Source: Escherichia coli
GTDB taxonomy: Bacteria > Pseudomonadota > Gammaproteobacteria > Enterobacterales > Enterobacteriaceae
Length of the DNA stretch: 800 bases
Reading direction: 5' to 3' (one strand)
Assembly (NCBI RefSeq): GCF_003334785.1
Contig: NZ_QOWV01000073.1
Below, one piece after another: positions 1-800 of this stretch (positions are counted from its first letter, which is position 1; each line of letters begins with the position of its first letter). The notes under the pieces were generated by a model that worked only from the letters and a program-made list of their open reading frames with translations, did no database searches and was not told the origin of the DNA. The position numbers and the translations under genes were made by a program.

Positions 1-800
1 CTGCTCGGTGCAAAGGTCCTTCCCGGTGAAACCGACATCGCCCTGCCCGGCCCGCTGCCGTTCATCCTCTCCCGCACCTACAGCAGTTACCGGACAAAAA
101 CGCCCGCGCCGGTGGGGAGCCTCGGCCCCGGCTGGAAAATGCCTGCGGATATCCGCTTACAGCTGCGCGATAACACACTGATACTCAGTGATAACGGCGG
201 CAGAAGCCTGTATTTTGAGCACCTGTTTCCCGGTGAGGACGGTTACAGCCGCAGCGAGTCACTGTGGCTGGTGCGCGGCGGCGTGGCGAAACTGGATGAA
301 GGTCACCGGCTGGCCGCACTCTGGCAGGCGCTGCCGGAAGAACTCCGCTTAAGTCCGCATCGTTATCTGGCGACAAACAGTCCGCAGGGGCCGTGGTGGC
401 TGCTCGGTTGGTGTGAGCGGGTGCCGGAAGCGGATGAGGTGCTGCCTGCGCCGCTGCCGCCGTACCGGGTACTGACCGGGCTGGTGGACCGCTTCGGGCG
501 CACACAGACGTTCCACCGCGAAGCCGCCGGTGAATTCAGCGGCGAAATCACCGGCGTGACGGATGGTGCCTGGCGTCACTTCCGGCTGGTACTGACCACG
601 CAGGCGCAGCGGGCAGAAGAAGCCCGGCAGCAGGCCATTTCCGGCGGGACGGAACCGTCCGCTTTTCCTGATACCCTGCCGGGTTACACCGAATATGGCC
701 GGGACAACGGCATCCGTCTGTCTGCCGTGTGGCTGACGCACGACCCGGAATACCCGGAGAATTTACCTGCCGCGCCGCTGGTGCGCTATGGCTGGACGCC
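1..800 (+). CDS. Rhs-family polymorphic toxin core protein (YD-repeat protein), internal fragment of the N-terminal conserved region; partial at both ends
   Basis: Seen in sequence: frame +1 is open for all 266 codons (1..798, plus 2 nt), checked codon by codon; codons are GC3-rich (ctg, ccg, ggc, cgc dominate). Translation: LLGAKVLPGETDIALPGPLPFILSRTYSSYRTKTPAPVGSLGPGWKMPADIRLQLRDNTLILSDNGGRSLYFEHLFPGEDGYSRSESLWLVRGGVAKLDEGHRLAALWQALPEELRLSPHRYLATNSPQGPWWLLGWCERVPEADEVLPAPLPPYRVLTGLVDRFGRTQTFHREAAGEFSGEITGVTDGAWRHFRLVLTTQAQRAEEARQQAISGGTEPSAFPDTLPGYTEYGRDNGIRLSAVWLTHDPEYPENLPAAPLVRYGWT. Established knowledge, recalled from memory and not searched: blocks such as GETDIALPGPLPFILSRTYSSY, GPGW, RSESLWLVRGG, LATNS.QGPWW.LGW, VLPAPLPPYRVLTG, GEITGVTDGA, FRLVLTTQAQRAEEAR, AFPDTLPG, GIRLSAVWL.HDP.YPE.LPAAPLVRY match the N-terminal region of E. 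coli-type Rhs core proteins (RhsA/B/C-like). The ATG at 139..141 is an internal Met codon, not a start; the true start and stop are outside the window. Confidence 0.9.
   Translation, partial: MLGAKVLPGETDIALPGPLPFILSRTYSSYRTKTPAPVGSLGPGWKMPADIRLQLRDNTLILSDNGGRSLYFEHLFPGEDGYSRSESLWLVRGGVAKLDEGHRLAALWQALPEELRLSPHRYLATNSPQGPWWLLGWCERVPEADEVLPAPLPPYRVLTGLVDRFGRTQTFHREAAGEFSGEITGVTDGAWRHFRLVLTTQAQRAEEARQQAISGGTEPSAFPDTLPGYTEYGRDNGIRLSAVWLTHDPEYPENLPAAPLVRYGWT

Follow-up and report, generated by a model that had tools for sequence, protein, structure and literature searches.

An internal rhs core fragment from Escherichia coli, most likely of rhsA or rhsB, and the known toxin/immunity modules that follow that core

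The 800-nt stretch of Escherichia coli DNA analyzed here, which we call the window, comes from the interior of an Rhs core open reading frame. Its positions 1..800 on the + strand correspond to codons 52-317, plus 2 nt of codon 318, of rhsA and rhsB. Frame +1 is without stops across all 266 window codons, and the remaining five frames carry 4-11 stops each. The translation aligns collinearly and from end to end with positions 52-325 of NF041261, the NCBIfam equivalog model named "RHS element core protein" (1261 positions), with an E value of 4e-162; the score of the window alone, 541.7 bits, stays under the 2000-bit cut-off of this model because the window is only a fragment. The segment at window 1..216 (+) matches DUF6531 (PF20148; RhsA aa 46-123, Pfam E 2.2e-17), which takes in the first 72 window residues, and window aa 1-135 align with residues 5-144 of Tse5, an Rhs effector of Pseudomonas aeruginosa (PDB 8cp6_B, E 1.5e-14). 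By homology, window 1..216 would form the N-terminal plug region sealing the Rhs shell, a role known from PMC8765631, and the window as a whole probably encodes this plug region together with the start of the YD-repeat shell.

Positions 700..800 (+), to which the first-pass annotation attached its prediction of a toxin/immunity module farther downstream, are placed by codon mapping at codons 285-318 and consist of ordinary core with no feature of its own. The first match to RHS_repeat, a weak one, begins at aa 318 of RhsA, directly after this segment. GC content is 0.65 over the window and 0.66 (0.663) at 700-800, with no step, and the DPxGL motif is absent from the translations of all six frames. 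The annotation's statement that the window itself holds no core boundary, toxin domain, or immunity gene is thus upheld by the open frame +1, the lack of DPxGL, and the full collinearity with NF041261. The window also contains two short imperfect direct repeats and one 13-nt inverted repeat with a 6-nt spacer (525-556), as well as antisense open reading frames of up to 130 aa, the 130-aa one lying at 349-741 on the - strand. We treated these repeats and antisense frames as features of the kind that arises by chance in coding DNA of 65% GC.

The window is identical over all 800 nt to both rhsA and rhsB of K-12, at ORF nt 154-953 in each case. The two exact matches lie at 9001-9800 of the K-12 rhsA locus (L001), within the rhsA ORF at 8848-12981, and at 9001-9800 of the K-12 rhsB locus (L002), within the rhsB ORF at 8848-13083; rhsC differs from the window by 3 mismatches. 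Over 3,741 core positions rhsA and rhsB differ at 42, located at ORF nt 18, 30, 78, 81, 1893, 3108, and beyond, with none in 154-953 and hence 0 inside the window. This identity is what made the two genes substrates for unequal crossing-over, the source of the name of the element (PMC2935791). By megablast the window was found in 3886 of the 5426 complete E. coli genomes, at a median of 3 places per genome and 12,015 places in total, and its best identity was at least 99% in 3,180 records. A single one of the 12,015 matches lies on a plasmid instead of the chromosome. When the ranking was sampled at even steps, exact matches made up the 8 first rows of 40. Two chromosomal loci hold the exact matches, the yibF-yibH interval (rhsA) and the nikR-yhhJ interval (rhsB). 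Since rhsA and rhsB share this sequence exactly, the window cannot tell which of these loci it came from or which tip/immunity module follows; more generally, an 800-nt window of rhs core is multicopy and near-identical within genomes and so does not identify a locus or a tip.

In the exact-match loci the core runs on well beyond the window. A core end of the form PxxxxDPLGL lies at residues 1238-1247 in rhsA, rhsB, and rhsC alike, reading PVTNTDPLGL, PISDIDPLGL, and PISNIDPLGL, respectively, and the aspartate of DPLGL is residue 1243, 925 codons (2773 nt) beyond the window end. The first-pass annotation had correctly expected a DPxGL core end downstream, and its distance of about 1,000 or more codons was slightly too high. 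NF041261 covers aa 1-1247 of the full ORFs with 2647 and 2644 bits, above the cut-off of 2000, and TIGR03696 (Rhs_assc_core, "RHS repeat-associated core domain") covers aa 1170-1247 and ends at the same residue. RHS_repeat (PF05593) gives ten matches with E <1e-3 at RhsA aa 361-892, between the window and this domain, and TIGR01643 (YD_repeat) scores 137 bits; nearly all repeats are downstream of the window.

Past aa 1247 the three K-12 proteins diverge sharply, into tips that belong to different families or to none. The C-terminal extensions are 130 aa (RhsA), 164 aa (RhsB), and 150 aa (RhsC) long, in agreement with the polymorphic extension of about 150 aa that had been predicted. The predicted drop in GC content at the junction of core and tip is equally clear. 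Across rhsA, rhsB, and rhsC the cores have a GC content of 0.613-0.617, the tips 0.366-0.413, and the next genes 0.312-0.337; in the exact-match loci the values are 0.616 for the core, 0.402 and 0.366 for the tips, and 0.337 and 0.333 for the immunity genes, a descent in rounded terms from 0.62 through 0.37-0.40 to 0.33. A GC-rich core of about 1,200 aa followed by an AT-rich extension of 130-177 aa was described by Jackson et al. 2009 (PMC2935791), who also described the diversification of tips by insertion and C-terminal displacement (PMC2935791).

The 130-aa RhsA tip is a member of Ntox34 (PF15606), with a match of E 3.6e-43 that spans the full model (1-80 of 80). It carries the sequences GNVAD and WNCRH, which correspond to the GNxxD and WxCxH motifs given for Ntox34 in the motif lists of PMC3482391. 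Among 18 relatives N65, C119, and S122 are invariant and G64, D68, C93, and W117 are conserved in at least 90%. An AlphaFold2 (AF2) model of this tip is all-alpha, with a pLDDT of 82.6 overall and >90 for residues 71-120, and a Foldseek search with the model returned no PDB relative, all E values being above 5. The conserved part of Ntox34 is made up of the final ~70 residues (GNxAD ... C ... TxKAWxCRxSRxSKD), and the preceding ~55 residues are variable and, in several relatives, rich in glycine and alanine. Relatives of the RhsA tip numbered 41 cluster representatives at E <=1e-3 among 1.84 billion, which makes the Ntox34 relatives a small family.

The gene yibA starts 20 nt past the rhsA stop and ends 4044 nt beyond the window; its product consists of HEAT_2 repeats and scores 466 bits against NF007244. 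The RhsA module thus combines a PF15606 match, both Ntox34 motifs, an all-alpha model, and a HEAT-repeat neighbor, the full set of features of the Ntox34/Imm-HEAT class, a pairing catalogued by Zhang et al. 2012 (PMC3482391). For an immunity function of yibA we draw on the literature: according to Poole et al. 2011 (PMC3150448), who cite Vlazny and Hill 1995, the toxicity of the RhsA tip is neutralized by yibA. Two degenerate orphan toxin/immunity cassettes lie further downstream at the rhsA locus, as the first-pass annotation had suggested might be the case. The first, after yibA, has a second core end (DPQGL, at L001 14327), a stop-interrupted tip (L001 14342-14830) that matches no significant Pfam or NCBIfam family, and then yibG; the second has a third, badly decayed core end and then a frameshifted gene of the Imm57 family.

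At the rhsB locus, the 164-aa tip is a DUF4329 domain (PF14220, E 2.6e-39), and the neighboring yhhH, which overlaps the rhsB stop by 29 nt and ends 3638 nt beyond the window, encodes a protein of the Imm-NTF2-2 family (PF15631, E 3.4e-26). Zhang et al. 2012 named DUF4329 Tox-JAB-2 and listed its pairing with Imm-NTF2 family 2 (PMC3482391), and they noted Imm-NTF2-2 as restricted to E. coli (PMC3482391). Residues H96-T97-H98 of the RhsB tip (HTH) are invariant in our alignment and constitute the H[ST]H motif of Tox-JAB-2, so that this module has the PF14220 match, the motif, and the Imm-NTF2-2 neighbor that together define Tox-JAB-2/Imm-NTF2-2. The adjacent small immunity ORF that had been predicted is therefore present behind both of the 100%-identity cores, as yibA (HEAT) or yhhH (Imm-NTF2-2), and it belongs to a recognized family in either case.

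The AF2 model of the RhsB tip is an alpha+beta fold with a pLDDT of 70.6, built from a 5-sequence alignment; tip searches gave mostly near-identical E. coli fragments, so the alignment is shallow and the model is only of moderate quality. The top PDB matches of this model in Foldseek are MPN/JAB proteins such as Rpn11/Rpn8, BRCC36, and a bacterial Ubl-deubiquitinase, all of them weak (best E 7.6e-3, none reaching 1e-3; TM 0.34-0.46). These predicted-fold matches are weakly consistent with the Tox-JAB-2 assignment. The structural-homology guesses offered for tips of EHEC Rhs proteins in PMC7216683 (such as toxin A and proteasome lid) were not taken as function; the proteasome-lid match simply reflects the JAB/MPN fold.

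Beyond yhhH, the rhsB locus contains a partial copy of yibA and then an ISEc1 (H-rpt) element. The copy, at L002 13491-13889, is 399 nt long and 97% identical to L001 12950-13348; it comprises the final ~30 nt of the rhsA tip together with the spacer and the 5'-most ~350 nt of yibA, and it ends just before the ISEc1/H-rpt transposase gene. Truncated in this way, it leaves the K-12 rhsB locus with a dead yibA. RhsB tip, yhhH, and yibA follow one another here in the order that strain 210205630 (L006) has intact at its rhsA locus.

A third module follows rhsC in K-12, where the RhsC tip and YbfB, and the ybfO orphan tip with YbfC, lie in 7325-8103 and 8221-10220 of the locus (L003). The RhsC tip is 150 aa long and cysteine-rich, and YbfB is hydrophobic. 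In the displaced ybfO copy the orphan core end (L003 ~9181) reads PVQYIDSMGL, an altered form of the PxxxxDPxGL boundary motif. A Pfam scan of a GS-linked concatenate of the RhsC tip, YbfB, the first rhsA orphan tip, YibG, the ybfO tip, and YbfC gave no match at E <=1e-3; the Serglycin matches in that scan were rejected as artifacts of the GS linkers. The RhsC tip, YbfB, the ybfO tip, YbfC, and the first rhsA orphan tip, though known genes, likewise have no significant Pfam or NCBIfam family, and the PDB sequence searches with the three K-12 tips gave nothing below E 0.5.

We compared DNA segments comprising each tip and its immunity gene with the complete E. coli genomes. Of 5,426 genomes, 1,757 contain the RhsA tip with yibA, 2,684 the RhsB tip with yhhH, and 2,536 the RhsC tip with ybfB. 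With each of the three K-12 modules present in 1757-2684 of the 5426 genomes, most copies of the core are accounted for. The RhsA-tip/yibA query finds matching DNA in 3142 genomes, of which only 1757 have the tip and yibA together. Many of the remaining genomes match only query positions 362-1256, which begin 29 nt before the yibA start, and these yibA-only matches suggest that yibA has been retained in many strains that lack its cognate toxin. Short partial Rhs fragments of 162-463 aa were all that a word-indexed protein search with the window translation gave, and that search is unfit as a census of tips. The "YibA" mentioned in PMC12945103 should read YbiA and has no bearing on this gene.

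Taken together, these results make it very probable that the window is internal conserved core of an E. coli subfamily-I Rhs gene, most likely rhsA or rhsB of a K-12-like strain, with a known module downstream. All 38 of the 38 exact-match rows that we inspected are annotated as RhsA, RhsB, or an intact "RHS element core protein", and the two of these that we opened in full (L004 and L005) each contain an intact 4134-nt ORF followed by yibA. The outcomes that the first-pass annotation had named as contrary to its prediction, an early end of the ORF, a missing C-terminal extension, or a missing immunity ORF, were encountered in none of the exact-match loci examined. They do have counterparts among windows of 99.6-99.8% identity, where we found frameshifted rhs genes, a 1.1-kb deletion, and fusion to an orphan tip, so the contrary scenario is seen in some strains with near-identical windows.

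These relatives bear on the possibility that the source strain has a rearranged or decayed end, in which a known tip has been swapped, a deleted core has been fused to an orphan tip, or a stop or frameshift has intervened, leaving known parts reshuffled or dead. In CP015912 (L006 2358-7895), the yibF/yibH locus carries a DUF4329 tip and yhhH, followed by an intact yibA as an orphan, and its rhs ORF is interrupted by a stop codon at aa 1322, which falls within the tip. This rhsA locus is a natural case of tip displacement between the rhsA and rhsB loci. CP123017 (L007) and CP061108 (L008) each have, at 6848-10430, a frameshifted 3.1-kb rhs gene with yibG directly next to it. By blastn, L007 lacks K-12 rhsA nt 10196-11313, an internal deletion of 1.1 kb that fuses the core to the first orphan tip and thereby removes the Ntox34 tip and yibA. 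A shorter match, in H94 (CP128613.1 4468264-4468511), covers window nt 1-248 only and lies where proteins with DUF6531 and with DUF4329 are annotated; a protein cluster of 456 aa (P0027) combines these two domains. Both appear to reflect a large in-frame loss of shell sequence, which would bring the plug region and the RhsB tip together. Such rearrangements, along with the excess of genomes with yibA DNA over those with the RhsA tip and yibA together, indicate that broken or exchanged ends do arise behind this core. However, the genomes with rearranged ends carry 2-3 differences within the window (99.6-99.8% identity; L007 differs at 2), and the inspected exact-match rows and fully opened loci point to intact genes, so we regard an end of this kind in the source strain as distinctly improbable.

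Less probable still, and indeed very unlikely, is a tip/immunity pair of an undescribed family behind the identical core in the source genome. Loci of the same clade can exchange tips, whose total pool is described as very large (PMC2935791), and the RhsC and ybfO tips, YbfB, YbfC, and the first orphan tip illustrate that Rhs-associated sequences outside the current Pfam and NCBIfam families exist even in K-12. Nevertheless, the exact-match loci examined have exclusively the RhsA or the RhsB module, and at a median of 3 window places per genome the three K-12 modules explain most copies of the core. The first-pass annotation had proposed that any previously undescribed system would sit downstream of the window. 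A toxin/immunity module does exist there, and it is already known: both modules fall in families described in 2012, the rhsA pair is reported to have been tested in 1995, and nothing undescribed is found at that position. The architecture of core, tip, and immunity gene, the C-terminal displacement of tips, and both toxin/immunity pairings can all be found in textbooks or catalogues for E. coli.

The modular structure of the gene is evident from the identity of the window, the boundary motif, the domain families, the GC step, and the orphan cassettes. For a K-12-like source strain, then, the core would extend 925 codons farther, up to the Rhs-associated core domain and its terminal PxxxxDPLGL, and past this motif it would switch abruptly to an AT-rich, horizontally exchangeable tip and immunity gene. 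If the gene is rhsA, the expected sequence is the 130-aa Ntox34 toxin, yibA encoding the HEAT-repeat immunity protein, and the two decayed orphan tip/immunity cassettes; if it is rhsB, we would expect the 164-aa DUF4329/Tox-JAB-2 toxin, yhhH encoding Imm-NTF2-2, the truncated yibA copy, and the ISEc1 element. New tips would enter by recombination in the identical core, pushing old tips downstream as orphans.

The encapsulation, autocleavage, and delivery of E. coli RhsA and RhsB can be proposed by analogy with solved Rhs proteins. A shell, a plug, and an aspartyl autoprotease are known from the structure of P. protegens RhsA, and autoproteolysis is also known from Tc toxins (PMC8765631). Judging from solved Rhs effectors (PMC8765631), the YD-repeat shell may enclose the tip, an aspartyl autoprotease at the DPxGL region may cut the tip free inside the shell, and the toxin would then leave the shell in the target cell. 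The immunity protein would bind its cognate toxin and so protect the producer and its kin. In these respects the E. coli proteins would resemble P. protegens RhsA, P. aeruginosa Tse5, and A. baumannii Tse15, which share the YD-repeat shell and the N-terminal plug region and have a C-terminal Rhs-associated core containing the aspartyl autoprotease, followed by the encapsulated toxin. Unlike these type VI secretion system (T6SS) effectors, E. coli rhsA and rhsB have no adjoining vgrG, eag, or hcp, none of which occurs within 9 kb of either locus, and neither a Pfam PAAR domain nor a transmembrane prePAAR region was detected in RhsA; its aa 1-45 gave no Pfam PAAR match even at E values up to 10. 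A literal PAAR tetrapeptide is present at RhsA aa 5-8 and serves as a lead only. K-12 is without a T6SS (PMC3032704). Given the lack of a T6SS in K-12, of a Pfam PAAR domain, and of T6SS neighbors, these genes do not show the features of T6SS PAAR-Rhs effectors, and T6SS delivery, the customary route of such Rhs proteins, is unsupported for K-12 itself.

As to what the tips do, their toxicity and nuclease activity rest on papers that cite Vlazny and Hill 1995 and Ma et al. 2017; Hespanhol et al. 2022 count Ntox34 and Tox-JAB-2 among the toxin domains characterized by Ma et al. 2017. The interest that remains lies in the activity and fold of Ntox34 and in whether and how strains without a T6SS, such as K-12, deploy Rhs toxins. 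One could imagine that these orphan subfamily-I Rhs toxins act by an unrecognized enzymatic mechanism, are delivered independently of a T6SS, or have a role within the cell. This reading is based on Ntox34 having no solved relative and on K-12 keeping intact rhsA, rhsB, and rhsC with their cognate immunity genes despite having no T6SS, and we consider it unlikely.

Among known systems, the closest to the window are the K-12 elements themselves. The K-12 rhsA element, whose locus comprises the core, the 130-aa AT-rich extension, yibA, and the orphan core ends of the yibJ/yibG region, is not distinguished from the window by any feature, but rhsB is equally identical. The K-12 rhsB element has its core end at the same residue, 1247, and the H-rpt/ISEc1 element, and it differs from rhsA in carrying DUF4329/Tox-JAB-2 and YhhH instead of Ntox34 and YibA. 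A more distant parallel is CdiA-CT/CdiI, whose delivery depends on a two-partner secretion filament instead of a YD-repeat shell and which has no sequence relationship to the window. Like the Rhs systems, it joins a polymorphic C-terminal toxin to a conserved delivery part, with an immunity gene alongside and with orphan modules (PMC3150448), and its short boundary motif is VENN where Rhs proteins have DPxGL.
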